A stretch of DNA of 52,649 nucleotides. Source: a virus (taxonomy: Duplodnaviria > Caudoviricetes). A program made the translations under genes and the position numbers. Positions 11,901 through 31,515 of the stretch are shown here, piece after piece (the first letter of the stretch is position 1; the number at the start of each line of letters is the position of its first letter). The stretch spans positions 1-52,649 of IMG/VR virus record IMGVR_UViG_3300025096_000028; one strand, 5' to 3'. The notes beneath the pieces are model-generated. The model searched no databases and was not told where the DNA came from. It worked only from the letters and a program-made list of their open reading frames with translations.

Positions 11901-14900
11901 AGTCCAACCTCAAATATAAATAAAAAACAAAGTCTTTTTATTAACTCTATAAGAGATGCAGCTAGAAATATTCCAGGACAAAAATCAGTAAGACCTAATG
12001 TTACTGAAAGACCGACTCTGGAACAAATGAAAAGACTTGAAGAAGGTAAAGATATTAAAAAAATATCTAATAAAGATATTAATGAAATAATGGAATTTTT
12101 TCATAGAGAAGGAGTAACTATTTGGTCTAATGGATACAAAAAAATGAAACAACTTGAAGATTTCACAGAAACTGTTGTAAAATTTCAAGCTCATGAATCT
12201 CTAAAAAAATCAGAATTTCCAGTACTTGACGCTGAAGGAAAAGTTATAGGAAAAACACCGTTTAGTTTGAAACATTTTAATGTAATTCAAATCTTAAAAG
12301 AACAGGGTATTGTTGATAGTTTTCTAGGAGTCACTAAAGATGTTCAATTATTTGGAGAAAGTTTGACCTCTTTTAACAAAAGACAAAAAAATCTTAATTT
12401 TGATAAAATGTTTGAAGAAATAGATAAAAAAGGTCTAGCAGACTACAAAAAATCTTTAGAAGATGCTAATCTTTCTCAAGTAGAAATAAATAATAGATTA
12501 AAAATCTATGAATCATTTAAAGATATGGCTGAAAATCCAAAAACAATAGATATGAAAATGCAAGAAATTAATGCTCTTATAGATAATCTTACTAATAAAT
12601 ATAGACCAGAATTAGGTTCTTATACTGGTGTATTAAGTCCCCATACAAGACAAACTCAAATTTTAATTCCTAGCAATCAAGCTCAACTTTTATACATTAA
12701 ATTAAGCGAAGTTTTAACTCAAGAAAAATATGGAAAAGAACAAATTTTTCATAAAAAATTATTTGATATGGATTCAAACCGACCAAATGACCAAAGACAT
12801 AGTGCTATAATGAAAATGATTACCGCTGACTTAATGACTAGCAGAGAATCAAGTGTAAAACAATTTGATGCCGCTGTTTTAAGTAAATTGTACGATGTAA
12901 CAAAAAATGAATTTGCATGGAATAAAGATAGATATGTGGACAAACTTGAGCCAGGAGACCTTATGATGGCTCTTAAATCTGAATTAAAAAAATTTAATTC
13001 TATTATGGAGAATGGTTGGGATTACTCTAAAAGACAAATTAAAGAACGATACGAAAATTTTGAACAATTAGATATGACTAAAGATTCAGAATTAATGTCA
13101 CAATCTTGGACAGTAGACCATTTATTAGAATACAATCTTGGAGAATGGACCTCATTAGAAGAGGGTGTAAGTAAAAGAAAATACTTACATAATAATATTT
13201 TTATAAAAGAATTTTATGGAGACGTTGCTAAGTTTAATCTAAAATTCAAAGAACAATTAGAATTACATAATAGCGAATTTAGAGATAATCCAAATCTTAC
13301 ACAATCTGTGCTAATGAAAGTTTCAACAGATTTAGTAAACTCAAAAGATAGACCAATCATTGAAATAGACTTAAAAGATAAAGCCAGAACAACAAGAGAA
13401 GATATTTCAGTTACTCAAAGTATTAGAGATGGAATAATTGAAAAACTAATTAGCGACCCAGCTCAACAAGCATTTGGTATAAAAAATAAAATTATTTATG
13501 TTAAAAGTACATTAAAAAATAGAGAAGGAAAAGAAGCAAGTTTATTTGATAAAGATATGTATATAGATGCAGCTGATGCAGCATATAACGGAGAATTACC
13601 TTATATGCCTAAAAATCCTAAAGATATGGTATCAGAATATCAGGGTAGGGATGTAGAAAGACCATCTGATTTAAAAATTGAGACAACAGGACAAGGGGAA
13701 GTTTTACCTAGATTAATGTTTTATCTTCGTCATCCTAATAGTATGAAAGGAAAAATTGACTCATTTAAATTAAATGATAGTTTAGTTGATACTGTTTTGA
13801 ATACTTATCTTAAGACTTTATATAAAGATGGTCAAAAAGAAATGGCAGATAAATTTATTGCTGATAATAACGTAAAAAATGAACAACGTATAGACCCAGT
13901 AACAGAAGAAATTGTTACTATTAAAGATTCTTGGACTTTTGGAGGTAAAAATCAATCTCCATTATTTTCTGATTTTAATGTTTTCCCTATAGAACCAACA
14001 TTAGGTAGACAATTATTTAGAGACATGCTTTATACTTTAGAGTTAAGAGAAATAAAAAAAGAAAAAGGATTAGATAATTTTTATAAAGAACTATCGCAAG
14101 ACCCAGAGCTTCATGCTCTAGAACAGACAAGAATCAAGATAGTTGATAATTCTAATTCTGTTCGCCTTGATAAACCTTTATTAAAGAAACATTATGAATT
14201 TATGTCAGAATCTAAAGTAGAGTTTGAAGGCAAAAAAGATATTCTTGAAATGAATCAAAGAGCTACAAATAGTCATCCAGAAGGTAGGACAATTAAAAAA
14301 GTTGTAATTAGAGATGAAAATTTAAATGGTAAAGTTGCCGAAATTGTGAGTGTACAAAATAGGCTTATAAAGGGACTAGAAAAGTTAATAAACAATCCTG
14401 AAACAAACATTTATTCTAAAAAAATCTATGAAAGAGAACTTGAAAATATAAAAGATTTATATAAAAATCAAGGCTATGGTGAGGTGTCTGCTGGAGATTC
14501 TTATATGATGGTTACTAAAAAGTTTCATGATTTTATGGATTACACTAGATTCGGAAGAGAGCCAGGCACTTCTAAATCTGGTGGTATTAAAGCGCATTAT
14601 GCAGATATAAAAAATCCTAAACTATTTGGTTTATACAAAACATTTCTTCAGAAACACAAAATGATGGAAAAAATAGTAGAAGGAACAGATGTAGAAGTAG
14701 TTGTTTTTAACACTGCATCTAAAAAAATGGGTCAAAATTATCACAAAGAAATGGCAGAGAAGTTTATTTCTTTAGATAACTTTACTTCAGAAAATTTTAA
14801 TTTAAATAGTTTAAAAGAGAAAATAAAAGATAAAAATACTCATATACCTGTAGATATAGAAGGATTTAGTATTATGTACAGAAAAGGCAATAAAACTGAT

Positions 14901-17900
14901 GTTCCAGCTCCAGCTAATCAATCTTTACATTTTGACATGTTAACTTCTTCAAAAGAATTAGGAGATTCCAATGTAATGAATCAATTCATTAGAGATATTT
15001 ATGGAAAAAAATTGGAGACAGCAAATGAAAATGCTAGAAGAATTGGTAAAACTCAATACATGAATGAACAAATAGCAAAATTAAAACAATTAGTAAATCG
15101 TAAAAGTATTCATAATGCTGAAAGTATGGAAGGGTTTGTTTTAGGAGAAGGTGATATGAAAGTCGCCAAATTACTTACTATGTTTGATGCTCCTCCTCAA
15201 TTAGGTGGAGTTACTATGACTGAGTTGTTATTAAAAGATATATTTAGTGAATCTTTAAATCCTAAAGTTTCAGGTTCACATGCTGTATTTGCTCCAGATA
15301 TAAGATTTAAAAAAGATGGAACTTTGGAAAATCCTTTAAAAATTCCTATTGTTGATAAAGATACAGGAGAACATTTTCAATTAGGAGAAATTATAGTTCC
15401 TCATGATTTCAGAACTAGACAAACTAATATAGATAAAATTACAATAGAAATTCCTAAAAAAGGAGAAAATAATATAATTGTAAATGGTTCTGAAGCATCA
15501 AAACATGGTATAACATTAAGAGAAAATGGTACTATGTATGATTACGCAAAAAACGGACAACAAACTCCATTATATCAAGTTAAAGTAGATATGTATGAAC
15601 ATCAAGGAAGAAGAAGTAAAGATGGAGACCCAGCTGATATATGGGTTGTTAAAGATTTAAAAGAAGCAAATGAACAATTACAAGCAATGAAAGAAGGTCC
15701 AGGAGGAGCTGTAAACTTTGCTAATAAGATTGTAAAAAATAAGAATATAGAAAGTGGAGAATATATATTAAGGGACAACAAAGCTGATAGAGGTGACCAT
15801 AAATATATTTATATTAAAGGTAGTAAAGCTCATAAAGAACTATTAAAAGAAGAAATTATCGTTCCTGACACAAATGGAAATTTAACAGTTAGACAACAAG
15901 CTCTTCAAAAAGACCCTAAAAAAGTAAAAGGAAAACAATATATTAAAGGAGCTGAAATACCATATAATGTGGTTTTATTCGCAAGAAGAGACCCTTACTA
16001 CAAAGAAGGTAGTGTAGTTCCTGTTGCTTTAAAAGATTTTAATGAAAGAGATAATGGAAATCAATTTATATTAAATGATAAAGATGCTTTCCATCACGTT
16101 GAAACAGATATGGATGGAGATACTGCATCTATTTCTCACAGCTATTCTAAAGAAGTTTCTAAAGAATTTATGAAGATTGCTTCTCAAGCGATGGCTACAC
16201 AAGTTAGACCAACAAATGGAAATGCTGCTTACGAAACTCTTACAAGTGGTCCTTACAATCCAATGAAAGAAATAAGTCAATTAGAATATTCTGAAGTACA
16301 AGCAAGAGCAGCTAGATTGAGAGGAAGTGTTATGCAAGTTTCTCATATTGCTCATTGGTTTTTAAATAACAATAGTCGTAATGACCTTAGGATATTGAAT
16401 GAAAAGGGAGATGCAGTTTTTTATGAAGGACCTATGTTCCCTATATCTGGTACTGATAAAGGAATTCAATTATTTTTAGGAATAAGACAAGAAGTTAGAG
16501 ATAAACAGGGAGCAAGTAGGTTTAGACAAGAATTAGCTAAAGATATTCAAACTTTAGTAGATACAGCTAAAGGTGAATGGGATACAGAATATTTTAGTAG
16601 TGCTAGAGATATAACTAACAGATTATTATTTCATAAAGACTATGGATTATTTGTTCCTATGAAAAGGCAGAAGAGAAAAGATGGAAAATATAAAGACGAA
16701 CTTGTATGGATTGAACAGCCTAATATTGATTTCAGAAGAGACCATGTTACCGCATTTCAAGCAATAGAAAAATTATGGATGATTAAAAAAGATTCTTTAA
16801 AATTTAGAAACAATGAATTGAATGCAGATGGTAGTATGAGAAAGCCTAAATTTAAAGATAGAAAAGCAACAATGGATAGATATGGTGAAGAATTGTCTTC
16901 TTTTGAATGGAGTGAAGAAGCTAATGCCCTAAGAAATGAAATGGGATGGAGTCAAAGTCAGCAAATACTTCGTGGATTTGGTGATAATGCTAATTTTATG
17001 AGAAATAAAAATGGAACAAGCAATATGGGAATGATTGATAGAATTGACTATTCTATGCATAGCGGGATTAACCATGGATGGAAATGGAAAAATACTGATA
17101 CAGATATTACAAGTCTTGTAGAAAGTACAATAGATAAATTTACAGCTACTAGAGAAAGAGGCGAAAATAATAAGTATTTAAGTGATGCCGAGCATTATAA
17201 TAAAATAATAGAGGCATTCAACAAAGAAACTAAAGAAGTTGGTGCAAAATTTTATATGCTAGAAACTCTTCAAAATCAAGTAGCTGAATTAAGAAATGAA
17301 AGAAAAGGTCTTACAGGCAATGACGCTTCTAGTGCTGCTAAACTTACAGCTCAGATAGAGGCTAAAAAAGTTCTTATAGAGAATATGAAGAAAATTGAAC
17401 TAAAAGAATATTTAGATGTAGATTCATATTTTACAGACAAAGCAAAATTAAAACCTAAAGTTAAACAATTTCTAGATTCTGTTTTTAATGATTATAAAAT
17501 AAGAGAAGAAAGAATATTAAAAGAAGAAAAAGGAGATAATTTCTCTGTTTTAGATGCAGATGCTAAGAGCAAAATAGAAGCAAGAGCTAAAGCAAGTATG
17601 GAAAAAAATGGTATTAATATTGAACAAGTATCTAGGGGAGATGTATTAGAAGCTATGGCTGCTGAAAGAGCATTTGGTAATTTAGCTGAATCTACTCCTG
17701 GACTTTTGAAAGTGAATGCAGAAACTCATAAAGAATTAATTAATATCATAGATAATCTTAAAAAAGATTATAGTGAAGCTATGTTAAAAGAATATAAGCC
17801 AAAAGAATCATCAGGATTTATAAATGATAATTATATTGTAGATATTTATAGAGAACAATTATTAGGTATATTACGTGCTGATAAATATCAAAATCCAGCT

Positions 17901-18689
17901 TTACAAGAATTGGTTTTTAGAAGATTAATGTCTCCAGAAATTCAAGCAAATAAAATTGGAAGTTATAGAGGTAATTTGTACTTTATGCCTAAATATACAA
18001 ACTTTCACAAATTTGTAAAATTGGGAATGCAAACATCTATGGAATTTCATCAGGGAATACCTTCAAGATTAGAGCCTCTTTGGAAACCATTTTTTAACAA
18101 TTATAAAAGACAAGTTTTAGCAATGCAAAATGGAATTGCTGGAGAAGGAACTTTAAAAGATGGTAAAATGACTCCTGAAAATTGGAGAGTAGAACATTTA
18201 ACTATGGGTACTAGATATAATAAATTAAGATTATTAGAAGAATTAATTCCAGAAGCTGATAATATTTTTGGTAAAAGAATTACAGAACTGGATAACTATA
18301 CAATAGATAGTATAATATTTAATGGAGGATTTATTCCAGAAATTATTAACAATAATAGAATTACTAACTTACCATGGAAAGCTGTTACAGACATCAGCGC
18401 AGAATATGGAAGAGATTCAGCAATATATGGTAAAAAAGAATCAGATATAGCTATAGACCAAAATAATGCTAGAGCATTTTATATAGATAAAGATAGAAAT
18501 TCTTTTATTAGAGATTTGCAAACTAATAATACATTAAAATCAAATGAGACATCTCAAAATCTAACACAAGAACGTTCTGTGGATGTAGAACGAAGTTTAG
18601 AAGAATATGAAAGAAAAAGTCAAGAAGAAACAGAACAACCAAAAGAAGGTATATTATGTTCTGTAACAGAAGTAATAAAGGGAGATTAA
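8928..18689 (+). CDS. Giant virion protein containing a single-chain two-barrel (DPBB) DNA-dependent RNA polymerase
   Basis: Beta-like motifs GDSYMMV (D1857), K1888, K1904, DVEVVVFNTASK; beta-prime-like VSGSHAVFAP, GEIIVP, R2354-D-P, catalytic DMDGD (aa 2394-2398, nt 16107-16121), bridge-helix-like LVDTAK; hydrophobic N-terminal helices; one Cys. Confidence 0.8.
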   Translation: MPDDNIFEQSLLQRLARGEEVEDNTFDIKNRVSNYEQNISTQTPKPNQDLSKLLQERAERAGRPPSKKQSDVYSYEDRVDFSGNPTDRVHFWESERSLMEQLGRGSAMFGEGIVDQALLGAPSTFTDWEDIAPDPETGLERFMQMSGETIGFILPFMATKGRTSAAAQSSKAGAKTGLKQLETSVDAAISKKNLKFDSKLYKTADDAKDFIVKQATALTVGNKLSNFARMSAVQKTKFSRDMQHNTGKMIKEFVAKQGIRGIDDEAVKLISKDMGTWWTSIDGRVVSSLEDLMTNNLMKRNLFANWDTTGKYAAYMGGMMEEAALFAMVEGMALGVQDLSSADWWGYKPKALDGENKVPIGIMDYLKTGIHASVFGAALGWTRAAIPGGVRGGVFKQMKGSNLDNINSMLNGPGTNFAKGIKTTTKEGRQSLNHMHRAYGQIDDLILKDKELGTVGIPTVLGKKARNHPSFKKLPEKFRNKELFLPEDLAKLASDETLTRAQKIAIAEIQQDGLQHLAKRVRTDMRVAFAKTMKADWFGGTVNGERIMGSFPRVLAGGTLFGVQGWIDPNVPMDDKIFHTMLGMAFLKGGRDLQFKGRDVSLDRMTNRWNSKSSGLFGRTSADFPKNLEILSEINSTTGVDVGNRGVWGPIFNRIEQDRIDFWDQVQPVGGVNEKTSTFHKKVLEKDKKGNYKYLVKEKFDTDGNDITFKGDTDLKLKGPRDQFIPNYIYWSRNVQSAFNKEGNKIIPEGYRVKDITMQELKSSEARGMEKMFKELDVFNSFDMWRYLTKSGGLHIKKGVDMMVSDMIKTDFLIRPDGKKYSLVGQTNDGFTKLSPIDSSRLDLSKMSDAHKENQLHIEQALDTWNRVVDLNHRNSDMPFSQIGQPIKIDNRTSGLIEWANHIQSSQERFSDRLKPMGFKKIIKIDNFLEAQYDIFNDFNSVDKSISVLKKLYETKQDKLEPSEKRILDKINDAIKTEKDGKITDLVLVSDSPTSNINKKQSLFINSIRDAARNIPGQKSVRPNVTERPTLEQMKRLEEGKDIKKISNKDINEIMEFFHREGVTIWSNGYKKMKQLEDFTETVVKFQAHESLKKSEFPVLDAEGKVIGKTPFSLKHFNVIQILKEQGIVDSFLGVTKDVQLFGESLTSFNKRQKNLNFDKMFEEIDKKGLADYKKSLEDANLSQVEINNRLKIYESFKDMAENPKTIDMKMQEINALIDNLTNKYRPELGSYTGVLSPHTRQTQILIPSNQAQLLYIKLSEVLTQEKYGKEQIFHKKLFDMDSNRPNDQRHSAIMKMITADLMTSRESSVKQFDAAVLSKLYDVTKNEFAWNKDRYVDKLEPGDLMMALKSELKKFNSIMENGWDYSKRQIKERYENFEQLDMTKDSELMSQSWTVDHLLEYNLGEWTSLEEGVSKRKYLHNNIFIKEFYGDVAKFNLKFKEQLELHNSEFRDNPNLTQSVLMKVSTDLVNSKDRPIIEIDLKDKARTTREDISVTQSIRDGIIEKLISDPAQQAFGIKNKIIYVKSTLKNREGKEASLFDKDMYIDAADAAYNGELPYMPKNPKDMVSEYQGRDVERPSDLKIETTGQGEVLPRLMFYLRHPNSMKGKIDSFKLNDSLVDTVLNTYLKTLYKDGQKEMADKFIADNNVKNEQRIDPVTEEIVTIKDSWTFGGKNQSPLFSDFNVFPIEPTLGRQLFRDMLYTLELREIKKEKGLDNFYKELSQDPELHALEQTRIKIVDNSNSVRLDKPLLKKHYEFMSESKVEFEGKKDILEMNQRATNSHPEGRTIKKVVIRDENLNGKVAEIVSVQNRLIKGLEKLINNPETNIYSKKIYERELENIKDLYKNQGYGEVSAGDSYMMVTKKFHDFMDYTRFGREPGTSKSGGIKAHYADIKNPKLFGLYKTFLQKHKMMEKIVEGTDVEVVVFNTASKKMGQNYHKEMAEKFISLDNFTSENFNLNSLKEKIKDKNTHIPVDIEGFSIMYRKGNKTDVPAPANQSLHFDMLTSSKELGDSNVMNQFIRDIYGKKLETANENARRIGKTQYMNEQIAKLKQLVNRKSIHNAESMEGFVLGEGDMKVAKLLTMFDAPPQLGGVTMTELLLKDIFSESLNPKVSGSHAVFAPDIRFKKDGTLENPLKIPIVDKDTGEHFQLGEIIVPHDFRTRQTNIDKITIEIPKKGENNIIVNGSEASKHGITLRENGTMYDYAKNGQQTPLYQVKVDMYEHQGRRSKDGDPADIWVVKDLKEANEQLQAMKEGPGGAVNFANKIVKNKNIESGEYILRDNKADRGDHKYIYIKGSKAHKELLKEEIIVPDTNGNLTVRQQALQKDPKKVKGKQYIKGAEIPYNVVLFARRDPYYKEGSVVPVALKDFNERDNGNQFILNDKDAFHHVETDMDGDTASISHSYSKEVSKEFMKIASQAMATQVRPTNGNAAYETLTSGPYNPMKEISQLEYSEVQARAARLRGSVMQVSHIAHWFLNNNSRNDLRILNEKGDAVFYEGPMFPISGTDKGIQLFLGIRQEVRDKQGASRFRQELAKDIQTLVDTAKGEWDTEYFSSARDITNRLLFHKDYGLFVPMKRQKRKDGKYKDELVWIEQPNIDFRRDHVTAFQAIEKLWMIKKDSLKFRNNELNADGSMRKPKFKDRKATMDRYGEELSSFEWSEEANALRNEMGWSQSQQILRGFGDNANFMRNKNGTSNMGMIDRIDYSMHSGINHGWKWKNTDTDITSLVESTIDKFTATRERGENNKYLSDAEHYNKIIEAFNKETKEVGAKFYMLETLQNQVAELRNERKGLTGNDASSAAKLTAQIEAKKVLIENMKKIELKEYLDVDSYFTDKAKLKPKVKQFLDSVFNDYKIREERILKEEKGDNFSVLDADAKSKIEARAKASMEKNGINIEQVSRGDVLEAMAAERAFGNLAESTPGLLKVNAETHKELINIIDNLKKDYSEAMLKEYKPKESSGFINDNYIVDIYREQLLGILRADKYQNPALQELVFRRLMSPEIQANKIGSYRGNLYFMPKYTNFHKFVKLGMQTSMEFHQGIPSRLEPLWKPFFNNYKRQVLAMQNGIAGEGTLKDGKMTPENWRVEHLTMGTRYNKLRLLEELIPEADNIFGKRITELDNYTIDSIIFNGGFIPEIINNNRITNLPWKAVTDISAEYGRDSAIYGKKESDIAIDQNNARAFYIDKDRNSFIRDLQTNNTLKSNETSQNLTQERSVDVERSLEEYERKSQEETEQPKEGILCSVTEVIKGD

Positions 18690-18690
18690 T

Positions 18691-21576
18691 ATGGCTTCAA
18701 TAAGAATATGTGCTAAATCAAATAAACAGAAAAAAGAAATAAGAGCTGCACTTCAATTGCATGCTTCTAAACTTGGTCAATGGATGGGAGAAAAAGGTTT
18801 TGATAGTAGAGATATGAGGCTTACTTGGGACCAAATAAAAATGAAAACTGTTGGAGCAAAAGCTGGTATGGATGGAGATTTTAGGATAGAACATTTGCAA
18901 AAAATTCCTAAAGTAATTGCTACAGCAAAATATAGATTAACAAGAAATAGAAATGATATAGTTAATGCTATTCTTCAGCCTCAAGACAGGGCTAAAGATT
19001 GGGGTGTAGTTGACAGGTTTAATGAAAATATATTTCGTTCTGTTAATGAATATGCAGGTAATAATCAAACAAACGCTGCTTCATATCAAAACCTTTGGAA
19101 ATTTATAGCAGAAGGTTCAGCTATACTAGGAGCAAAATCAAGAAATAATCCTTTAGGTAAAATTTATAAAAATCCAAATCAACTTGCTAAAGTTGTTGAT
19201 AGGCTATTTTCAGAATATGATTTAGCTCAAGCAAATGGAGATGTAAACCTTGCAAGAGAATTATATGAAGGAAATCCTAGAAAAGGAATAGTTGGAATAA
19301 ATAAGATAATGAGACAAGGGCAAGGTAAAATATTTAAAGAAGTGTATGATTTAATTTTGCAACCAAAAATAAATAGCGGTGGAAAATTAGGATATAAAGA
19401 ATTTGCAGAACGAAGGGGATATACTGAACAAGCTAAAAATGCAGCAGAGATATGGCATAATGAATTACATCCAAGAGGAAGAATACAAATAAAAAAAGGT
19501 ATAGAAAATTTTAGAAATTCAATAAAGAATAAAAGACATATATTTGGGCACTTAACAGATTCAAATGGTCGTTTATTATATGATAGAGTTGTTAAAAATC
19601 TTGATGGTGTAATTAAAGAATACAATGATAGAAAGAATCAAAAGGAAGGATTTTATCCTATATTTTCAATGGAAGTTTTACCTTCTATAACTGAAGCTTC
19701 TAGATTAATGCTTCATGCAAACAAAAAGAATCCAGAAAAAGATATTCGACAGGGAGCAAGTGTATTAGAAAAAATAGAAAAAGTATTTAAAGAAAATAAA
19801 AATTTGCATACAAATTTAAGAGATAACAAAATTAATAATGATAAAGCTAGTGCTAACATATTTTATGTATTAGATGCATATAGTAAAAATGCTTCTAGAT
19901 TTAATATGGTAACTTATAATACAGCTCAATATTTAAAAGTTATGGAAAGTTTATATAAGTTTGAAGGAACTGAGATGGAAACTAAGATGAAACAAATGGA
20001 AGAATTTATTGACCATCAGTATTCAATTATTAGTGGTCAAAAAGCTGGAGAGAATAAAGCATTAAATGATATTACAAGAGCTATAACATCATATCAATTT
20101 GCTTCTAAGCTAGGTTTAAACCTTAGAAGTGCGGCTAGAAATGCAACTCAAAGTTTATTAAATTATGTTCATTTTGGAGCTATTAATTTATATAAATCAT
20201 ATAAAGAAATGCTAGACCCTAAAATGAAAACAAGAATAAATCAAGGGCTACAAGATAATGGTATTTTATTTGCAGACCTTAAAGAGGGACCTCTGACTGG
20301 TTTTATTAATAAATCTGAATATAGTCTTGAAAAAGGAATTTTTGAAACTAAAAAAGGAGTAAATGCTGATTACTTACATAGATTTGCAGATTCTATTGAC
20401 AAAATAGCAGATACAACAGGTTGGGCTATGCAATTTGTTGAGAATAAATTAAATCGTAAGTTAACATATAAAATTGGATATAGTTTAGCTTGGAAAAGCA
20501 TGAAGAGTGATAATACTTATCACCAACAATTATTTATGAATCAAATTAATAAACAATTAAAAAGAGAAGGTATTTCTAAAGGTGAAATAAAAAAATTAGA
20601 AGCCAATAATTATAGAGATTTGCAAAAAGAAGGAACTCATCAAATATTTAAGGAAGGAGATTCTACTCACATGCAATTTTTGTATGAAAATTATTTACGT
20701 AGAAAAGCAAATAATGCTGGTGTTTGGGCTACTAGAGAACTTCATTATGATTATTCAGCTACAGGAAAATCTCAATTTATGACTACTAAACCTGGTGCTG
20801 TAATGTTTCAATTCCAACATTTTAGTATGAGTTATTTTAATTATCAAAGAAAGATAGCAAGAAATTATGCAGAAGATTTATCTTCTGGTTTGTGGAATAC
20901 CCCAGAAGGTGGTAGAGCTTTTAGATTAGCAATGCTATATGGAGTAATAACTCCTTTATTTGAAGTTGCAATTCCTGGAGGAGCAAGATTTAGCAACCTT
21001 GTACAAAACGATACAGCAGAAAGAATTATTCAAATTAGAGATTATATATTAGAAGGAAATGAAGGTATGACCACAGATTCTAAAGGTAATTTAGTTGAAT
21101 ATGATAAGAGAGAAGGTAGAGGTTCTTTTTATGGAAAAGGTCCTTTTATTGGTTTATTGGGTGGACCTATGATTTCAGACTTAGTTACTTTAAATAATTT
21201 AGCGGATTTATATGATTTAGATGAAGATGGATGGGCAGCTATGCTTAGTGGTTATCAAGATTATTCAGATAAGTCAACAAATGAAAAATGGGATATTCTC
21301 TGGAAGACAATAAATAGAGGTAGTCAAAGAATGACAAATTTTTGGACTGGAAAAGGAACTTTTGGAAGCCAGGTTCAAAGTAGTTTTGGGTTGTTTCCAA
21401 ACCAGGATATTTTGGACAAAAGACAACAGGTTAGAAGTTGGTTTGAAAAATTGGGGATTATGGAACCTGATAAAAAGAAACCTAAAACAGTTAAACCTCG
21501 AAGTATATCTCCTGATATAGATAAAAGCTTAACTACTTTAGGTAGAACTGGTGGTAGAGCTGCGGGAAGTTATTAA
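18691..21576 (+). CDS. Large ejection/cargo protein
   Basis: LGLNLRSAARNATQ and HYDYS...MFQFQHF motifs resemble C-terminal regions of large podovirus ejection proteins; one Cys at residue 7. Confidence 0.6.
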   Translation: MASIRICAKSNKQKKEIRAALQLHASKLGQWMGEKGFDSRDMRLTWDQIKMKTVGAKAGMDGDFRIEHLQKIPKVIATAKYRLTRNRNDIVNAILQPQDRAKDWGVVDRFNENIFRSVNEYAGNNQTNAASYQNLWKFIAEGSAILGAKSRNNPLGKIYKNPNQLAKVVDRLFSEYDLAQANGDVNLARELYEGNPRKGIVGINKIMRQGQGKIFKEVYDLILQPKINSGGKLGYKEFAERRGYTEQAKNAAEIWHNELHPRGRIQIKKGIENFRNSIKNKRHIFGHLTDSNGRLLYDRVVKNLDGVIKEYNDRKNQKEGFYPIFSMEVLPSITEASRLMLHANKKNPEKDIRQGASVLEKIEKVFKENKNLHTNLRDNKINNDKASANIFYVLDAYSKNASRFNMVTYNTAQYLKVMESLYKFEGTEMETKMKQMEEFIDHQYSIISGQKAGENKALNDITRAITSYQFASKLGLNLRSAARNATQSLLNYVHFGAINLYKSYKEMLDPKMKTRINQGLQDNGILFADLKEGPLTGFINKSEYSLEKGIFETKKGVNADYLHRFADSIDKIADTTGWAMQFVENKLNRKLTYKIGYSLAWKSMKSDNTYHQQLFMNQINKQLKREGISKGEIKKLEANNYRDLQKEGTHQIFKEGDSTHMQFLYENYLRRKANNAGVWATRELHYDYSATGKSQFMTTKPGAVMFQFQHFSMSYFNYQRKIARNYAEDLSSGLWNTPEGGRAFRLAMLYGVITPLFEVAIPGGARFSNLVQNDTAERIIQIRDYILEGNEGMTTDSKGNLVEYDKREGRGSFYGKGPFIGLLGGPMISDLVTLNNLADLYDLDEDGWAAMLSGYQDYSDKSTNEKWDILWKTINRGSQRMTNFWTGKGTFGSQVQSSFGLFPNQDILDKRQQVRSWFEKLGIMEPDKKKPKTVKPRSISPDIDKSLTTLGRTGGRAAGSY

Positions 21577-21743
21577 TTTTTTTCTGAATTAGCTTTTTTG
21601 ATATAATATCTTTTAAGTTCCATTAGTTTACTAAATGCTTCTTTTAAGGCTTTTCTGTTTTTATCGTTTAGTTCAAAATTGTTTATAGTTTTTAACATTT
21701 CTTCGTTTTCTGTAATGGTTTTTAAAATAGAATTTAGATTCAT
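21573..21743 (-). CDS. Hypothetical protein, 56 aa (not in ORF track)
   Basis: MNLNSILKTITENEEML...; AGGAG SD, ATGA overlap with the RuvC-like gene; its stop overlaps the stop of the convergent + strand gene. Confidence 0.65.
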   Translation of the reverse strand: MNLNSILKTITENEEMLKTINNFELNDKNRKALKEAFSKLMELKRYYIKKANSEKN

Positions 21744-22195
21744 TTTTTCTCCTTTAATGCGTACATTCCAATACAGATTGCGTCTGCATTCTTTAATGTA
21801 ACTTTGTGATTATTACCTGCCCAATCTTGAGCAACTTTCTTAAAATATCTTTTTCGTTCTGTATAGTCTTTTGGTATATCTTCTCCAATGGACTGTTGCC
21901 ATGTCTTAGGCAATACATCTATTCTGTTCAATTTTAGACTAGCTATAATTCCAAGCCAGATTCCGTAATTTTCTCCAAAAGTAAAAGCCCCTCTTTCATA
22001 AGGTCTAGCCCAAACTCTTTCTATGTATACTGTAGGTTTTTTTCTTGCTATAGCATTTCTTATAACTTTAACCATATCTTTAGGGTCCCTGGAAGCAGGA
22101 CAATTGGTAGTGAATTGGAGGTTCATCGAGTCGAAGAAAGCAACTGCCCCACTCCATCCAGGGTCTATTGTGATAAGATATTTTGAATGAATCAT
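21740..22195 (-). CDS. RuvC-like Holliday junction resolvase
   Basis: ITIDPG, VYIE, FGENYGIW, PKTWQ and ADAICI RNase H-fold motifs. Confidence 0.8.
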   Translation of the reverse strand: MIHSKYLITIDPGWSGAVAFFDSMNLQFTTNCPASRDPKDMVKVIRNAIARKKPTVYIERVWARPYERGAFTFGENYGIWLGIIASLKLNRIDVLPKTWQQSIGEDIPKDYTERKRYFKKVAQDWAGNNHKVTLKNADAICIGMYALKEKK

Positions 22196-22214
22196 GCTAT
22201 TTAAATCACTCTTA

Positions 22215-23567
22215 TCACTTATTCATCATTTGTATAGCTTCTGTTCTGTCAAAGTATATACTACACTTATCTCCATTGAAGCCCATATTATATGAACCCA
22301 ATTGACCATATCTAGCTTTTTGACATATGATTTCAATCTCATACCTATCATTGTCTCTATTATCTACTGCATAAGGATAGTATACAAAGAACGCCGCTTC
22401 AGCAGTTTGTTCAATTACACCACTTTCTGCAAAGTCTGATAGTTTTGGTCTAGGGTCTAATCGTCTTTCAATTTCTCTATTAAGCTGCGATACTAATATA
22501 GCACTACACTTAATTTTCTTACAAATCCACTTATAGTCAAGCATTATATCTTCTATTTCAAACCTTCTGTCCTTATTCTTTCCGTCTGTACGAATAAGTT
22601 GGATATAATCATCGAGGATTACATCTGGTTTTTCCTTTCCTATCTCTTTCATTGCATCTGCAAGAGTTTTACAATCATCTAACATTATTAGATTCTTATA
22701 TTTTTCACCCAAAGCTTCTCTTTTGAGATTAATTTGAGTTATCTCTTTATCTATATTACTAGCTTTTCTAATCTTTTCATAACTAAACTCTTGAAATTCC
22801 ATTACTAAAATCTTCTTCATCATTTCAACATTAGTCATTTCACGATTAAACAACATAACTTTCTTACCTTGTTCTAGTAATCGTTTAACAATATTGATAA
22901 CCATAGTAGTTTTACCATGTCCTGGTCTACCACCAATAACTGTTATCTCACCTCTAGTCATACCACCAGCTGCTTTATCTAGCTGTTCAATGCCAAAGGG
23001 TATTAAGTTACTACCTTCTTTTAACGCTTCTACTGTATTCTCTAATATATCTTTAGTTTCAACTACTTTACTTGGAGCAATATCTTTTAACTCTTGAACT
23101 ATTTTTTCATGCTGATGTAATACTTCAACAATATCATCCGTATTTTGTAAAGTTAAGTTATAAAGTATTTGGGAACTCTTTACTGCTTTACGTTGTATAA
23201 ACTTATACCAAATATTCTTAGCGTAAGTCTCAGCGTTTGCAGTAGTAGGAACTCCATTAGCTAATCCAGTTAAATAATAAGTAGTTAGTGTATGGTCTGT
23301 AACATTATCTTTAATATCTCCGAATACAGTAACTGTATCAATAGGAACATTGTTCTTATATAATCTGTTAAATGAGTTCCATAGTTCTTGATGTTTACTT
23401 GTATAAAATGCATCAGCTTCTTTAATAACTGATTTAGCTTTTTCAAAGATTTCATCGCCTTCTAATAAAATACTACCTAATAAGGCTATCTCTGCTTCTT
23501 CATTCTTGGGCATAGGTTCCAGTCCATTTGTCTGTTTAAGCTTTTTATTGTCTGTTAATGGTTTCAT
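22215..23567 (-). CDS. dnaB: Replicative DNA helicase
   Basis: N-terminal EAEIALLGSILL domain; Walker A GRPGHGKT; DDYIQL; SQLNR; SGVIEQTA; KARYG. Confidence 0.92.
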   Translation of the reverse strand: MKPLTDNKKLKQTNGLEPMPKNEEAEIALLGSILLEGDEIFEKAKSVIKEADAFYTSKHQELWNSFNRLYKNNVPIDTVTVFGDIKDNVTDHTLTTYYLTGLANGVPTTANAETYAKNIWYKFIQRKAVKSSQILYNLTLQNTDDIVEVLHQHEKIVQELKDIAPSKVVETKDILENTVEALKEGSNLIPFGIEQLDKAAGGMTRGEITVIGGRPGHGKTTMVINIVKRLLEQGKKVMLFNREMTNVEMMKKILVMEFQEFSYEKIRKASNIDKEITQINLKREALGEKYKNLIMLDDCKTLADAMKEIGKEKPDVILDDYIQLIRTDGKNKDRRFEIEDIMLDYKWICKKIKCSAILVSQLNREIERRLDPRPKLSDFAESGVIEQTAEAAFFVYYPYAVDNRDNDRYEIEIICQKARYGQLGSYNMGFNGDKCSIYFDRTEAIQMMNK

Positions 23568-23575
23568 AATACCTC

Positions 23576-24397
23576 CTATTCTTTAAATAGACTAATTTGC
23601 TTTTCTTCTGGTACATAATTTGTAATGACCAGTTCTATCTTCTTTTCTTCGCTATGTAATTGACCAGTATACTTAATAGGTATTTCAATTATTCTCCAAT
23701 GTTTGTACATATCCCAAATTGCAGGACTATTATCATATGATAGCATAAACTTTCCCCCGCTATCATCAATTTCATGGCACATAGCACATAAATCAATATG
23801 GTCATTCCAATTAAACGAATGTATATAGTAATCATTTCGTTTAGTTGCTGCAACATAAGGAGGGTCTAAATACCAGACATCTCCTTCTTTTGGTTCATAC
23901 TTGTCAATTAACTTTCTAAAATCCATATTCTCAATGAATGTGTCATTTAGTTTTTGTCTGCTTAGTTCTAAGTCGTCTAATATCTCATCATTCCATTTAG
24001 CAACGCTGCTTAATGGTAAGAAAGGCGTTTTGTTGAATGCTGTCTTTATGATAAAGAAGTATTCTGCTGCTCTCTTAACATCTGGAATATCTATCTTGTC
24101 TTCGGCGTGTATCTTCTTTCTATAAGTCTCGTGAAGTGTTCTTGATAACAATATGTGTTTAGCATAGTGTTTGAATTTCTCGAAATCCTCCGCTATTGAA
24201 ATATACAAATTTATTACATCATTATGCAAGTCATTTAATATGTTTATCTTAGCTTTATCTTTACGAAAGAACATACTTCCTCCCCCAAAGAACACTTCAA
24301 TATATCTATCGTGTCTAGGTAACATTTTCACTAGCTGTTTACTTAGTGTGAACTTACCTCCGTAATATGGAAATACTGTAGGACAATCATTCTTCAT
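23576..24397 (-). CDS. Dam-family (D12 class) N6-adenine DNA methyltransferase
   Basis: YYGGK, EVFFGGGS SAM-binding motif, ILND, catalytic DPPY, ELVITNY. Confidence 0.9.
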   Translation of the reverse strand: MKNDCPTVFPYYGGKFTLSKQLVKMLPRHDRYIEVFFGGGSMFFRKDKAKINILNDLHNDVINLYISIAEDFEKFKHYAKHILLSRTLHETYRKKIHAEDKIDIPDVKRAAEYFFIIKTAFNKTPFLPLSSVAKWNDEILDDLELSRQKLNDTFIENMDFRKLIDKYEPKEGDVWYLDPPYVAATKRNDYYIHSFNWNDHIDLCAMCHEIDDSGGKFMLSYDNSPAIWDMYKHWRIIEIPIKYTGQLHSEEKKIELVITNYVPEEKQISLFKE

Positions 24398-24663
24398 TTT
24401 TTGGTCCTTCCTCTACCATATGTTTTCCAGAATATTAAATCATGTGCATTTTCATAATATTTAAACATCCATTTATCTACAACGCCACCAGCGTAATCTG
24501 GATGATATTCATTATTTACGCACATATTAGACATCATTTGATGATATACAGCTGTATAAAACATTTTTTCATTATGATTATCACCAATTATCCACCAAGG
24601 GTTTTCTCCATTTTCATATATATCGCATAGTTCTTCAAATTTATATCTCTTCATTTTTGTCAC
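24394..24663 (-). CDS. Hypothetical protein
   Basis: Overlapping ORF in the early operon; real start may be the Met at 24654. Confidence 0.6.
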   Translation of the reverse strand: MTKMKRYKFEELCDIYENGENPWWIIGDNHNEKMFYTAVYHQMMSNMCVNNEYHPDYAGGVVDKWMFKYYENAHDLIFWKTYGRGRTKK

Positions 24664-24994
24664 CTTTTACTTGCTTATATAAATCAATAAACGCATCATT
24701 GCTTTCTACACCAACTGGTAAAACATGAGAACAAAGCCCAGCTTTCTCAAATCCTTTTCTACGTGCATCACTCATACCAACGTGTAAAGCACCTGGACCA
24801 TTTCCTTCGTCATCCATTCCAACAAAGAAAACATCACCTTTATCTGTTTTAAAACAAAGCCCAGTACCTTCTTCTGGATAATCTTTATCCCATTCTTGCC
24901 ACCAAACATCTGTTATTGTTCTTCTTTTCAATAGCGTTTGTGCTGATTGATACCACATTTTAGTTCTATTGTATTTTTTTTGTAAACTTTCCAT
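24641..24994 (-). CDS. Hypothetical protein
   Basis: GGAGG SD; tightly packed; DDEGNGPGAL motif. Confidence 0.7.
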   Translation of the reverse strand: MESLQKKYNRTKMWYQSAQTLLKRRTITDVWWQEWDKDYPEEGTGLCFKTDKGDVFFVGMDDEGNGPGALHVGMSDARRKGFEKAGLCSHVLPVGVESNDAFIDLYKQVKGDKNEEI

Positions 24995-25228
24995 TTAACC
25001 CTCCCCATGTTTAGTTCTTAAATGTTCATTTCTTTCATAATTTAAATTTGAAATATCATCTTCTATTTCATCCAACTGTTCTTCAAACTCTTCTCTTATA
25101 CTATCTGTATCTAGAGTATATCCTATTTCTTCATCAAAAGAATAATATATGCTTAAACATATTTCTGCATCTATTTTTCTTATTTTAGGTTTGTAATCTA
25201 ACTTTATATTTACTACGTTTTTTCTCAT
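24995..25228 (-). CDS. Hypothetical acidic protein
   Basis: ATGA-coupled ORF. Confidence 0.65.
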   Translation of the reverse strand: MRKNVVNIKLDYKPKIRKIDAEICLSIYYSFDEEIGYTLDTDSIREEFEEQLDEIEDDISNLNYERNEHLRTKHGEG

Positions 25229-25596
25229 AATTCAGCCTCAAACCAACATTCACCAGTTTCTTTAATGCAATCTCTAATTTGTATTCCTAATTGTAATCTT
25301 GCATAATTAACTAATAATATACTAACATGTCTTTCATCTATCTTAAGATATTCTGCTAACATATTATCGTTATATCCACCACCTGGTCTTTTAAAGAATT
25401 TATTCATCTTTGTTAAAAATCCACGTAAATTTTTCTTACACTCTCTAATACCTTCTTCTGCTGCTTCTAAATCAGCTGCATGGTATTGTATATAAGAAGG
25501 TTCACATTCTGTTGCTCCAAAGTGTTCTCCATCATCTGAAGATTGTACAGCAAACCAGAATTTTCCTTCTATGTCTCCGTGATAATATCTACCCAT
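25225..25596 (-). CDS. Hypothetical protein
   Basis: AGGAG SD; MGRYYHGDIEGKFWFAVQSSDD N-terminus. Confidence 0.75.
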   Translation of the reverse strand: MGRYYHGDIEGKFWFAVQSSDDGEHFGATECEPSYIQYHAADLEAAEEGIRECKKNLRGFLTKMNKFFKRPGGGYNDNMLAEYLKIDERHVSILLVNYARLQLGIQIRDCIKETGECWFEAEL

Positions 25597-25739
25597 TATT
25601 TTTCTCTCCTTCTTCTAATTGAGCTTTGTTGATTATAAAACATAAATTCAAAACCCAGTTTATCTAATTTATCAATTAATTTTCCTATTCTTTCTTGTAA
25701 TCTAAATGCTTCTTCATATTTCTTTGCTTCTTTATTCAT
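25596..25739 (-). CDS. Hypothetical protein, 47 aa (not in ORF track)
   Basis: MNKEAKKYEEAFRLQERIG...; AAGGAG SD; fills the gap with TAATG coupling. Confidence 0.65.
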   Translation of the reverse strand: MNKEAKKYEEAFRLQERIGKLIDKLDKLGFEFMFYNQQSSIRRRREK

Positions 25740-26004
25740 TTTTATGCTCCTTCAATTTATCATTAACTTTTTTAACGTTTTGGTAAAGTTTTTGATATTT
25801 ATTATCATGGAAGATAATATTATTTTTATTCAAGTGTCCCTCGTGTTTAATACTCCAAGTAGTATCTTCTTTAGTATCTTCTATTTCCTCTTCTGTAGGT
25901 ATATGGGGCATAGGATACTTGTCTACTCCGTCTTCAAAGTCTTCTGCATATCTAAGTTTATAATCATCCATTTTTTCTATTTCTTTTTTCTTAAAATATC
26001 CCAT
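25732..26004 (-). CDS. Hypothetical protein
   Basis: Coupled ORF with GGAG SD. Confidence 0.65.
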   Translation of the reverse strand: MGYFKKKEIEKMDDYKLRYAEDFEDGVDKYPMPHIPTEEEIEDTKEDTTWSIKHEGHLNKNNIIFHDNKYQKLYQNVKKVNDKLKEHKNE

Positions 26005-26252
26005 TACATTCTACTCCCTGCTGTAATTTCATCGTATTTATCTTTATTGCCTCCGCATTCTTCGGCAATCTTTTCACACCAATCAAAGTATGTCATTGGA
26101 GACACTTCATCATTGCAATTATTACACCAATAATTAGTATAATCATCTGGTTCTGTAATCTTACCAGTGTTCATATTAACCCATGCTTTTTCATCTACTT
26201 CTTCTGTACCGCAATAATCGCATACCCACATATCATCCATATCTTTGCTCAT
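26004..26252 (-). CDS. Zinc-ribbon protein
   Basis: CDYC...CNNC pairs. Confidence 0.65.
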   Translation of the reverse strand: MSKDMDDMWVCDYCGTEEVDEKAWVNMNTGKITEPDDYTNYWCNNCNDEVSPMTYFDWCEKIAEECGGNKDKYDEITAGSRM

Positions 26253-26482
26253 CTTTCATCCTTTTTTCTAAATTGCTCTATCCATGTATTTTGATATTTT
26301 TTAGGAGATGATAGACCTGAAAATATCCACCAACCTCTACCATTTTCTTTTGCAAGTTTTTCAGATATTTCATTATGCTCTTTTGTATAAGCATAAACTG
26401 TTTTATAACTTTTAAGTCTTTCTTCAAAACTGCTTTCACATTTTAAGGGATTGTTGTTTTTATCATGTAAACTTAAACTCAT
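26249..26482 (-). CDS. Hypothetical protein
   Basis: AAGGAG SD; ATGA coupling. Confidence 0.65.
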   Translation of the reverse strand: MSLSLHDKNNNPLKCESSFEERLKSYKTVYAYTKEHNEISEKLAKENGRGWWIFSGLSSPKKYQNTWIEQFRKKDER

Positions 26483-26505
26483 ATTTTTTTCTCCTTTTTA
26501 AGTTT

Positions 26506-26897
26506 TCAGAACTGAGATAGGATGTCCTAAATTAATAGAACTAATTATTTCCTACATCACCTACCTCTATTCTGATGTTATAGAAAGATTCGCTTCAAAT
26601 ATGAGCTCAAACTCTGTCCCCAACCGATTATATTAAAGGTATCGCCCTAGGGTTCGGTCCGTCATTGAGTTTTACGATATAAGTTTTCTTCATATCAACT
26701 TTCTAATTATTACTACAGAATAAGGCAAAACCTTGTGTACCTGGTATTGAATAGTTATCGGTCTTCAACTATCACAAGGAATGATTACATGTGCGTCTTC
26801 TGTAGTTTTACTAGCAAGTTTCAGAACTGAGGTGAGGCTTTGTTGGAATGATTTAATCGGTTTTCCTAAAGTTCCGAACCTTCCACCTCTATTCTGA
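26506..26897 (-). ncRNA. Array of four stem-closed structured RNA elements (26506-26575, 26581-26705, 26712-26806, 26821-26897)
   Basis: Each element is bounded by an inverted repeat; first and last share UCAGAAUAGAGGU...CUCAGUUCUGA; G-U pairs fit the - strand. Confidence 0.65.
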
Positions 26898-26946
26898 TTT
26901 AAGCCACTCAGGAACCTTTATTAAGAAGCTATCTCCTTTTAGGAAC

Positions 26947-27720
26947 CTAAGCTCTTGCTAATCTTGTTATTGTTGGATAAATCTGATTCTCCATAATATG
27001 AATAGACTCTCTATCTCTATGTGCAACGTGTGTCGCTACATAAGTACAAGCATTCAATAAATCCCAATATGTATTCATATTATTATTTAAACAATACCTT
27101 GTAAAATCTTCCATATATTGTTGTGGAATCAATTTAGCCATATCAACTAAATGTTTACTTCTTAACTTAGTCTTTGTTAGTCTTGGAAATTCTGTTTCAA
27201 ACATCTGAACTAACATAGCAACTGTATCAGTAATAGTACTATCTATTTCACCAATACTAGTATTATTATTCTTATGTACAGCTTTCTTCTTTGTTAAGAC
27301 ATTACCAATTGTCAATCCATTTAAGCATACAAGCCTAAATGCACCACCCATAATATTAACAGATGTAGTACCATCGTAACTATTTGCTACTATTAATTGT
27401 GGATTTATTAAATCTCCTTTTTCAATTTTAACTTCAGTCTTAGGGAAATTCCATTTCCAAATAGCTCTTTGACCATTTGAGAATGTTCTAGCTTCTGATA
27501 ACTCAGCACCAGAACCTTTTAATACTTTTTGAACTTTATTAACAACTGATTTGTTGTCAACTACTTTGTATTCATCAGTCATACAAGATAATACATCTCC
27601 TGTATCTTCTCTTATGATGAATTTATGACCTGTTCCTTCTGTTCTCATTACATCATCTGCGAGAACTGCTGGAACCTCCTTTACTGGAAACAGCGTTTCC
27701 TCCATTGCTACTATAGACAT
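26947..27720 (-). CDS. DUF932-family protein
   Basis: IIREDTGDVLS..YKVVDN, NSYDGTTS and FRLVCLNGL motifs. Confidence 0.8.
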   Translation of the reverse strand: MSIVAMEETLFPVKEVPAVLADDVMRTEGTGHKFIIREDTGDVLSCMTDEYKVVDNKSVVNKVQKVLKGSGAELSEARTFSNGQRAIWKWNFPKTEVKIEKGDLINPQLIVANSYDGTTSVNIMGGAFRLVCLNGLTIGNVLTKKKAVHKNNNTSIGEIDSTITDTVAMLVQMFETEFPRLTKTKLRSKHLVDMAKLIPQQYMEDFTRYCLNNNMNTYWDLLNACTYVATHVAHRDRESIHIMENQIYPTITRLARA

Positions 27721-28108
27721 TTTTATACTCTCCTCTTTCTACTTTTACTTTCTTTGGTGTTCTACCAAACTTTTTTATTTCATTTTTTAACATCTTATCT
27801 TCATTTTCATATCCAGATACTATCATTTGCTGTAAATATGCAAATCCTTTACCTTGATATACGTGTTCATCCATATTGTATCTGTATACGATACGTTCTA
27901 TTGTTTCATCAGGTATATTAGATATTGCTTGCAGGAAATAGAATGTCTTTTGATTATCCTTCTCAGAAGGAATATTTTGTCGAATTAATTTTATAACTCT
28001 TTGTAATCTTCTTTGACATAATTGATTTCTTTTTTCCAAAAGCGAAATGATACGCCTTGTTGGGTTGTATTTTCTTGTGCTGTCGTGTCCACATGCTACG
28101 CACTTCAT
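27653..28108 (-). CDS. Hypothetical protein, possibly a DnaD-like replication factor
   Basis: Start revised to 28108 (ATGA overlap, AAGG SD); N-terminal CxxC; KGFAYLQQMI loosely resembles the DnaD YxxxIL helix. Confidence 0.45.
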   Translation of the reverse strand: MKCVACGHDSTRKYNPTRRIISLLEKRNQLCQRRLQRVIKLIRQNIPSEKDNQKTFYFLQAISNIPDETIERIVYRYNMDEHVYQGKGFAYLQQMIVSGYENEDKMLKNEIKKFGRTPKKVKVERGEYKNVYSSNGGNAVSSKGGSSSSRR

Positions 28109-28317
28109 ACCTTTTTCACTTCCGTATGAGCTGACCATATATGTTTACCTTTATAATAGCTTTCATTGTTTTTAAAATGACTTCTGTTTGGTAATGTCAA
28201 AACTAGTACTTCTGCATTTATTTCACAACCCAATAATATACCTTCTGTACCATTTTGGTTAAACATATCACCAACATTTAAATCTTTTAAAAACATTTTT
28301 CCTTTACTACACTTCAT
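28105..28317 (-). CDS. Hypothetical protein
   Basis: GAGG SD; packed ORF. Confidence 0.6.
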   Translation of the reverse strand: MKCSKGKMFLKDLNVGDMFNQNGTEGILLGCEINAEVLVLTLPNRSHFKNNESYYKGKHIWSAHTEVKKV

Positions 28318-28319
28318 TT

Positions 28320-28532
28320 TTACCTCATATTCTCTTTAATTTCATGTTCTCTTCTTTTTTCTATTACTTTTACTTGTATTTCTTTTAAGTCTTTCTTTAA
28401 TGTTTCATATGGTACTTTCCATTTCCCATTATCTACACAAGGGACAACTGCTGACTCTAGCATGCCAAGACTATTTATTAATAATCCTATTTCATTGTCA
28501 CTTAATTTAATTGTTACTACTGCTTCGTTCAT
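28320..28532 (-). CDS. Hypothetical protein
   Basis: Packed ORF in the early operon. Confidence 0.6.
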   Translation of the reverse strand: MNEAVVTIKLSDNEIGLLINSLGMLESAVVPCVDNGKWKVPYETLKKDLKEIQVKVIEKRREHEIKENMR

Positions 28533-28692
28533 TTTCTTTTTCCCATTCGTCTTTTACAATAAAATCAATCATGTCATTGCTTACTGGTTTTTCATTTGAA
28601 TCTATTCCTAGATTTATTTTTATACGTTGTATAATTTTATTCCAAACAGTATTAACACGTCTTAATTCTTCTGCATGTTTAAGTTTATCCAT
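28507..28692 (-). CDS. Hypothetical protein
   Basis: Strong AAGGAGGT SD. Confidence 0.7.
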   Translation of the reverse strand: MDKLKHAEELRRVNTVWNKIIQRIKINLGIDSNEKPVSNDMIDFIVKDEWEKENERSSSNN

Positions 28693-28704
28693 GATACCTC
28701 CTTA

Positions 28705-28991
28705 TATATAAGGGCTTGGGTAGCCAACCTTTCTCAACTTTTCTTCCATAGAATCCGTTTGGAATTCCTGGACCAAAGCATAAAACAAGCCCTCATATAA
28801 TTTACAAAATTATCTTTAGAAAACAAAGGGAATTAGTAATCCCACATGACATTTATATTACGTTGTCGTACGTACTGGTGGAGTTTCGCATTTTATTTCG
28901 CTCTCCCTTTATTCTCTAAATCTTATAAGTTAAGTGCCTAAAAATCTAGTAGATAACCGAATATAAACTAGACAAAAGACACTTTAACTTA
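28705..28991 (-). ncRNA. Array of three stem-closed structured RNA elements (28705-28799, 28815-28920, 28926-28991)
   Basis: Closing stems of 14, 17 and about 14 bp, uninterrupted on the - strand apart from G-U pairs and one bulge. Confidence 0.65.
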
Positions 28992-29010
28992 CTCTCGCAA
29001 CATATGCCAT

Positions 29011-29864: not shown

Positions 29865-30102
29865 TACTATAAGACAAATAACTTTGATTAATATTTAAAT
29901 TAATATAATTATTCCTAGCAAAGTCATCAGTTGTTTTCATAACAAATGTTAGCATTGGCTTTCCATGATATAGTTTAGTTCCTGTAAATACTGCATTACG
30001 AAACTCTTTACCATCATTTACTCCAATAGTATAACTATTATTTGTTTGATATAGTTCATCTCTATAGTTTTCTTTTGGTTTATTTATTTCACTTAATTTC
30101 AT
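29833..30102 (-). CDS. Hypothetical protein
   Basis: ATGA-coupled ORF. Confidence 0.6.
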   Translation of the reverse strand: MKLSEINKPKENYRDELYQTNNSYTIGVNDGKEFRNAVFTGTKLYHGKPMLTFVMKTTDDFARNNYINLNINQSYLSYSIEEPKEETDG

Positions 30103-31514: not shown

Positions 31515-31515
31515 C

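Follow-up and report, generated by a model that had tools for sequence, protein, structure and literature searches.

Facing terminal cysteines of a predicted giant RNA polymerase and its neighbour suggest a disulfide link between cargo proteins of a mostly marine phage lineage

Introduction

This report concerns two adjacent plus-strand genes of a tailed phage (Duplodnaviria; Caudoviricetes; IMG/VR record IMGVR_UViG_3300025096_000028), which encode a giant protein of 3253 amino acids (aa) and a partner protein of 961 aa, each retaining a single cysteine close to the end that faces the other across the gene junction. The window, that is, the whole stretch of DNA analysed, is the entire viral record of 52,649 base pairs (bp), with a G+C content of 32% and an estimated completeness of 63%, which leaves roughly one third of the genome outside the record.

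The closest described arrangement is that of Anabaena phage A-4L (cyanophage A4), in which two consecutive genes ending the structural block encode gp27 (1717 aa), with a sole cysteine at residue 1715, and gp26 (1114 aa), with a sole cysteine at residue 5: a cysteine arrangement like that of the window. The structure of A4 by cryo-electron microscopy identified a disulfide between gp27 Cys1715 and gp26 Cys5, with the C-terminal helix of gp27 inserted into gp26. The bond is considered by its authors to stabilise the pre-ejectosome; neither a threading device nor a widespread rule is described in the accessible part of that report (PMC12002296). Unlike the window's giant, gp27 is not a polymerase, and A4 itself, a 41.7-kilobase T7-like podophage, is likewise unlike the window phage. 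Elsewhere in A-4L, gp28 (L029, 25321-28497, minus strand) has two cysteines only, at residues 1036 and 1039 of 1058, forming a CxxC near the C-terminus, and gp29 has none.

In the crAss-like Cellulophaga phage phi14:2, giant virion proteins end the structural operon: g067 (1797 aa) ends in its sole cysteine, the 2180-aa polymerase g066 carries cysteines at residues 3 and 2179, and the 1421-aa g065 carries one at residue 3; g068 lacks cysteine. The cysteines therefore lie at facing ends only, in three proteins with two cysteine pairs as opposed to the two proteins and one pair of the window, and the two-barrel RNA polymerase (RNAP) of phi14:2 is the best structural match to the core of the window's giant. 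The order of the window's genes resembles that of phi14:2 (terminase, portal, capsid, tail, cargo, RNAP block). No BLAST-level similarity was found when the window's structural proteins were compared by tblastn with bases 36,000-100,000 of phi14:2, and there was no profile-level similarity either. The available portion of the preprint on the phi14:2 polymerase mentions neither cysteine nor a disulfide. For crAss001, the structural atlas describes disulfides in no other places than the tail and the portal vertex, several of those in the tail being inter-protein, the word cysteine being absent from the portion of the text available, and argues that the cargo partly unfolds to pass the tail; that study also subjected virion samples, both reduced and non-reduced, to mass spectrometry (PMC10172136).

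In the Schitoviridae (N4, DEV), a polymerase of about 3400 aa, akin in size to the window's giant, is packaged and ejected, the virion RNAP (vRNAP) gp50/gp71 being accompanied by gp51/gp72 and gp52/gp73. This polymerase is of the T7-like single-subunit type, whereas that of the window is predicted to be two-barrel. The Schitoviridae ejection proteins have essentially no cysteine, terminal ones included, and so no tether of the kind discussed below is expected there. The absence of cysteine from the N4 vRNAP, which the initial annotation of the window took as documented, is indeed stated in print, and the near-total suppression of cysteine in the ejection operon of the N4-like phage DEV has been attributed to passage through the periplasm (PMC11445570). 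In a full-text literature search for disulfides in crassvirus cargo or for disulfide-linked ejection proteins, only the A4 paper reported such a bond, and this as one isolated structural detail, as far as the accessible texts extend (PMC12002296).

Results

Cysteine depletion in the giant and its partner

The genes and codons concerned are as follows.

5578-6825, plus strand: 415-aa protein that opens a cysteine-free run just 5' of the giant gene; no cysteine; no Pfam or PHROG family
6827-7342, plus strand: 171-aa protein; no cysteine; no Pfam or PHROG family
7344-8924, plus strand: 526-aa protein; no cysteine; only weak PHROG matches (phrog_5234, E 3.8e-5)
8928-18689, plus strand: giant protein, 3253 aa, with a predicted two-barrel RNA polymerase core; sole cysteine C3244
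18657-18659, plus strand: TGT codon of C3244, which stands 10th from the giant C-terminus with 9 residues after it
18691-21576, plus strand: partner protein, 961 aa, predicted to be all-alpha; sole cysteine C7
18709-18711, plus strand: TGT codon of C7, the only cysteine of the partner and an invariant column in the alignment

These five proteins have a combined length of 5326 aa. Translation of the open reading frames (ORFs) and a computational count bore out what the initial annotation had read from the letters, namely that the 415-, 171- and 526-aa proteins lack cysteine and that the giant and the partner have C3244 and C7 as their single cysteines; the interval it marked, 18657-18711, spans exactly from one TGT codon to the other. 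The remaining listed ORFs of the window hold 73 cysteines in 9253 aa (0.79%), and at this rate giant and partner together (4214 aa) should contain 33; the probability of two or fewer is 1.9e-12. The depletion, with its facing terminal pair, is real and far beyond chance. It extends to the ORF directly 5' of the giant gene in related loci, which has no cysteine in 10 of the 10 where it is listed, and two further ORFs nearby in the window are also without cysteine (2441-4000, 519 aa; 5196-5504, 102 aa), although a 394-aa ORF lying between them has three.

Conservation of the terminal pair

Co-conservation of the two cysteines, the lack of which the initial annotation had named as one of two findings that would speak against a tether, was found throughout the family. 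The pooled survey comprised 105 loci: the window, 24 loci on viral contigs and 80 metagenome loci, the latter drawn from 191 metagenome relatives. Both ends were visible in 86 loci, and in 86/86 the giant has one cysteine, at a position between -1 and -10, and the partner one cysteine at residues 3-11. The giant cysteine is the last residue in 57 of these, with the others at -2 (14), -3 (9), -4 (2), -6 (2), -7 (1) and -10 (1). The 86 pairs cluster into 56, 33, 21 and 12 groups at 95, 70, 50 and 40% identity, respectively. Where the partner N-terminus could be seen (91 of the 105 loci), exactly one cysteine lies within the first 12 residues in 91/91.

The viral contigs taken separately give 13/13 complete giants with one cysteine in the last 10 residues, at only 16-21% identity to the window's giant, and 11/11 paired partners with one cysteine at residues 3-7; the four full-length partner relatives found first (78% to 28% identity) have one each, at residues 3-6. 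Three further giants have a sole cysteine near the end (P0007 at -10, P0156 and P0157 at -2), and that of P0007, a relative of 59% identity, is in the same place as C3244. The same arrangement extends to a distant clade of 30 loci, in which 28/28 visible partner N-termini have one cysteine at residues 5-7 and the giants have one cysteine 3-7 residues from the end, both in the 22 loci resolved by script and in four of the remaining six, checked by hand (L130 and L139 fell outside the hand check).

Cysteine is otherwise excluded from these proteins: the 53 complete giants contain 53 cysteines in 156,722 residues and the 86 complete partners 86 in 78,765, which for the giants amounts to about one in 3000 residues, placed without exception at the facing end in every relative examined. 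The remainder of both tails is unconserved, as judged from the giant consensus and the partner N-termini, and across pairs there is no correlation between the position of the giant cysteine and that of the partner cysteine (Spearman 0.11, p 0.65).

An exhaustive profile search found 570 cluster representatives of the partner family at E<=1e-3, of which the best 150 were examined and 97 proved to be full-length: 91 have one cysteine in the first 12 residues, in one the sole cysteine is residue 14, two have one extra cysteine and three have none. Among these three, P0142 is a gene call whose start was placed 10 codons too far into the gene, its true N-terminus (L025:9971-12895) carrying C6, and the neighbouring giant has one cysteine at -6; the other two, P0025 and P0099, for which no contig was found, have profile matches that begin at profile positions 16 and 39 and are probably truncated gene calls. 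As the late start of P0142 illustrates, surveys of terminal residues on predicted proteins alone will undercount the rule.

The gene junction

18687-18693, plus strand: junction of the giant and partner genes, a TAA stop, one spacer base and an ATG, with GGGAG just 5'

The junction was measured in 62 metagenome loci, 31 of which show a TAATG overlap of stop and start, and this frequent overlap may point to coupled, equimolar synthesis. The spacing as a whole ranges from a 20-nucleotide (nt) overlap (-20) to +16 nt, and to about 95-210 nt in some loci; in L113, L129, L131 and L132, which belong to one distant clade, the two genes lie about 40-210 nt apart and both terminal cysteines are retained. 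Given that both the tails and the junction spacing are variable, selection has acted on the residues and not on a DNA motif.

Fused and split forms

No fused form was seen: none of the best 150 of the 570 representatives is longer than 1050 aa, a scan of 135 loci met no open frame above about 1050 aa around the partner gene, and two word-based searches aimed at long relatives yielded just two and four proteins. Two candidates for a split protein were rejected. The apparent break of the giant in L082 reflects a scaffold gap of 10 N, and the partner in L019 (9737-12437, on a contig shared with L074) falls into pieces of 475 and 444 aa through a 1-nt frameshift within a conserved motif, where the lack of a cysteine pair at the break indicates a sequencing error or recent mutation as opposed to a natural split. 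The window's giant may conceivably correspond to a fusion of the phi14:2 proteins g067 and g066; hhalign against the single sequences was not significant, and g067 has no full-length homologue among the phage records that could serve for a profile.

The giant contains a predicted two-barrel polymerase core

13995-17027, plus strand: polymerase core, giant residues 1690-2700 (AlphaFold model, mean predicted local distance difference test score (pLDDT) 57.3; Foldseek match 6vr4_A)
16107-16121, plus strand: D-M-D-G-D, residues 2394-2398, a candidate catalytic metal-binding loop; D2394, D2396 and D2398 are invariant in 13/13 giants

The only significant Foldseek match of the core model is 6vr4_A, the virion RNAP of phi14:2 (E 2.3e-5, probability 1.00, TMq 0.36), below which QDE-1, RDR2 and the largest subunits of Pol I/II are ranked. 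In the alignment of 13 relatives the DxDxD loop follows a conserved strand-rich stretch and fits the DFDxD motif that is named for crAss-like virion polymerases in the phi14:2 RNAP preprint. The model thus assigns the core to the crAss-type two-barrel RNA polymerases and not to the N4 type. The initial annotation had called the giant a polymerase and pointed to the ejected N4 virion RNAP: its identification as a polymerase stands, on the DxDxD loop and the 6vr4 fold, and the N4 (T7-like) type appears unlikely, the structural matches of the modelled core (residues 1690-2700) being two-barrel polymerases.

Sequence comparison gave little further. The giant as a single sequence had no match in PHROGs, Pfam or PDB sequences, tblastn of residues 1-3000 against the phage records found nothing, and a search of PDB sequences with a profile built from 13 giants gave no match, N4 vRNAP and gp66 included; hhalign of the giant against phi14:2 gp66 aligned the catalytic loops, weakly (E 0.21). 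The N-terminal part of the giant (residues 1-700; 8928-11027) has conserved glycine-rich and Pro/Gly motifs without a known family, its invariant residues being G105, G147, G151, F152, P155, G376, P387, G557, D575 and G583, and a protein-atlas search with it led to a viral cluster that has LPD22 in 57% of its members.

The partner protein

The partner is modelled as all-helical (pLDDT 66.6), with residues 1-8 around C7 unstructured (pLDDT <50). The model had no significant structural match: the best in Foldseek was a PhiM1 ejectosome chain (E 0.078, template modelling (TM) score 0.09), and VIA-align gave generic helical matches only (Z <8). There was likewise no significant family match, and a profile search of PDB sequences found nothing related. 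A borderline Pfam match to Alp7A_like_C, an actin-like domain, at residues 399-520 (23 bits, cut-off 22; E 7.3e-5) is probably spurious, the predicted structure there being purely helical. A protein-atlas search returned viral hypothetical clusters only, with weak polyvalent-protein leads (LPD39 in 28% of one cluster, LPD22 in 57% of one cluster). Co-folding of partner residues 1-770 with giant residues 3054-3253, with alignments, scored 0.02, which is below the mark and counts neither way.

Genome context

The cysteine-poor block closes the plus-strand late genes on the left side of the window, a minus-strand replication block occupies the middle, and the terminase, a P22-type portal and an SU10-type capsid protein lie on the right. 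The structural module seems to be interrupted at the contig ends: the final ORF (51171-52649) exits the 3' end and late-gene-like ORFs restart at the 5' end (1-5504).

21740-36331, minus strand: replication/modification block, from family matches
22215-23567, minus strand: DnaB-like helicase, within that block
23576-24397, minus strand: D12 adenine methyltransferase, within that block
26947-27720, minus strand: DUF932 protein, within that block

No transfer RNA gene was found in the entire window. The capsid protein had no match among 50,697 phage records and the portal four weak matches, none of them a crassvirus; the terminase reached 23-24% identity at most, with no crassvirus among the 15 matches listed of 338. 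To judge from these comparisons, the window phage appears to be without a close cultured relative.

Discussion

The lone facing thiols are strictly co-conserved and near the chain ends, phi14:2 carries a three-protein version of the same placement, and the A4 structure contains the bond. For these reasons a head-to-tail disulfide between C3244 of the giant and C7 of the partner, by which the virion cargo would be threaded and later released by reduction, is favoured and seems rather probable. The tether interpretation of the initial annotation is partly supported. From gene position, cysteine depletion and polymerase type we infer that the giant and the partner are packaged and ejected as internal cargo, and the bond between them is predicted from the cysteine signature. 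Cysteines placed no more than about twelve residues from a chain end, as opposed to anywhere on an interface, suit a link that preserves a near-linear thread, their restriction to facing ends in phi14:2 fits hetero-pairing in gene order, and the formation of disulfides in crassvirus virions (PMC10172136) was also counted for this interpretation.

If the two are so linked, the giant, consisting of an N-terminal part, the polymerase core and a C-terminal part, would lie within the virion together with the partner, and selection would have purged every cysteine from both proteins save the one in each facing tail. The thiols of C3244 and C7 would bond once the particle leaves the reducing cytoplasm, making one covalent chain of 4214 residues joined C-end to N-end, with the polarity of a single polypeptide. 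Partly unfolded, this cargo would exit via the tail during infection, the link fixing both the order and the 1:1 ratio such that the partner follows the giant, and cytoplasmic reductants would then cut the link and free the polymerase. Threading as one chain and reductive release of the polymerase are presumed steps of this scheme.

Several points weigh against a tether. Particles assemble in the reducing cytoplasm and the bond must therefore form later; here, moreover, it is predicted from a signature in the protein sequences. The A4 precedent is an analogy: no homology to the A4 proteins was detected, profile searches of the PDB finding nothing related and hhalign giving E 0.18 against gp26 and E 0.34 against gp27. 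The cysteines of the window (-10 and +7) lie deeper from the ends than those of the other 85 pooled pairs, and neither fused nor genuinely split forms turned up in the family, among the best 150 of the 570 representatives and 80 of the 191 metagenome relatives. Finally, N4-like phages eject a giant polymerase free of cysteine, and a tether is thus not required for ejection generally.

It is possible that each cysteine pairs with its own copy, giant with giant and partner with partner, such that cargo oligomers are stapled and the different proteins are left unlinked. Hetero- and homo-pairing cannot be told apart from sequence, and the cargo proteins of crAss001 are present in several copies per particle (PMC10172136). 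However, homodimers are improbable: they leave the facing-end placement on adjacent genes in 86/86 unexplained, phi14:2 has cysteines at both ends in the middle protein only, the bond observed in A4 is a hetero-pair (PMC12002296), and tail-to-tail or head-to-head dimers would need to cross the tail channel as hairpins. Comparably unlikely is that the thiols engage a third component, be it a metal ion shared at their interface or a cysteine in a different virion protein such as the portal, so as to anchor the cargo. Cysteine is indeed present in the portal, the capsid protein and further structural proteins of the window, and the crAss001 tail uses several inter-protein disulfides (PMC10172136); nevertheless, no conserved cluster of His, Cys or Asp lies near either cysteine, the tails being variable, a single thiol per protein makes a poor metal site, and in the A4 structure the pair is direct (PMC12002296).

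A role in other thiol chemistry, whether through an acyl or thioester intermediate, through lipidation that would insert the protein into a membrane or through self-processing of the ends, has as its sole point in favour that a strictly conserved lone terminal thiol would suit catalysis or modification. It is very unlikely, given that no known family or motif was matched and that the position floats (3 to 14; -1 to -10) without conserved neighbours, which would be unusual for an active site or modification signal. That the cysteines are mere by-products, either chance survivors of the depletion or codons kept as a nucleotide-level signal, might be suggested by the many relatives in which the codon stands directly in a TGT-TAA-ATG junction, but it can be set aside almost entirely: the cysteine is retained with spacers of 0 to +16 nt and, in some loci, of about 95-210 nt, as TGC as well as TGT and at 2-10 positions from the end, the partner cysteine lies a variable 3-11 codons into its gene, and the 53 giants have no other cysteine in 156,722 residues. 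In summary, all of these explanations are less well supported than a link between giant and partner, and chance is contradicted outright by the survey.

A broader proposition is considerably more doubtful: that end-to-end disulfide concatenation is general in short-tailed phage ejection, arisen independently or inherited from a deep ancestor. Cargo, virion RNAPs included, would then exit as one covalent N-to-C thread in an order set by the genes, reduction would both release and activate the polymerase, and other cysteines would have been purged because branches would jam the channel.

What appears to be new here is the A4-type terminal cysteine signature in the lineage of the window phage, which is large, uncultured and mostly marine, with a predicted crAss-type polymerase and its neighbour as a putative two-protein chain. 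The signature seems strict enough to predict physically joined internal proteins without further data. Podophages face the problem of moving megadalton amounts of protein through a narrow tail in correct sequence, to which a reversible covalent head-to-tail link, if true, would provide a simple physical answer, its redox-controlled opening setting the early polymerase free inside the cell and nowhere else; cultured phages named as sharing the signature (phi14:2, crAss001 and A4) make direct testing feasible.

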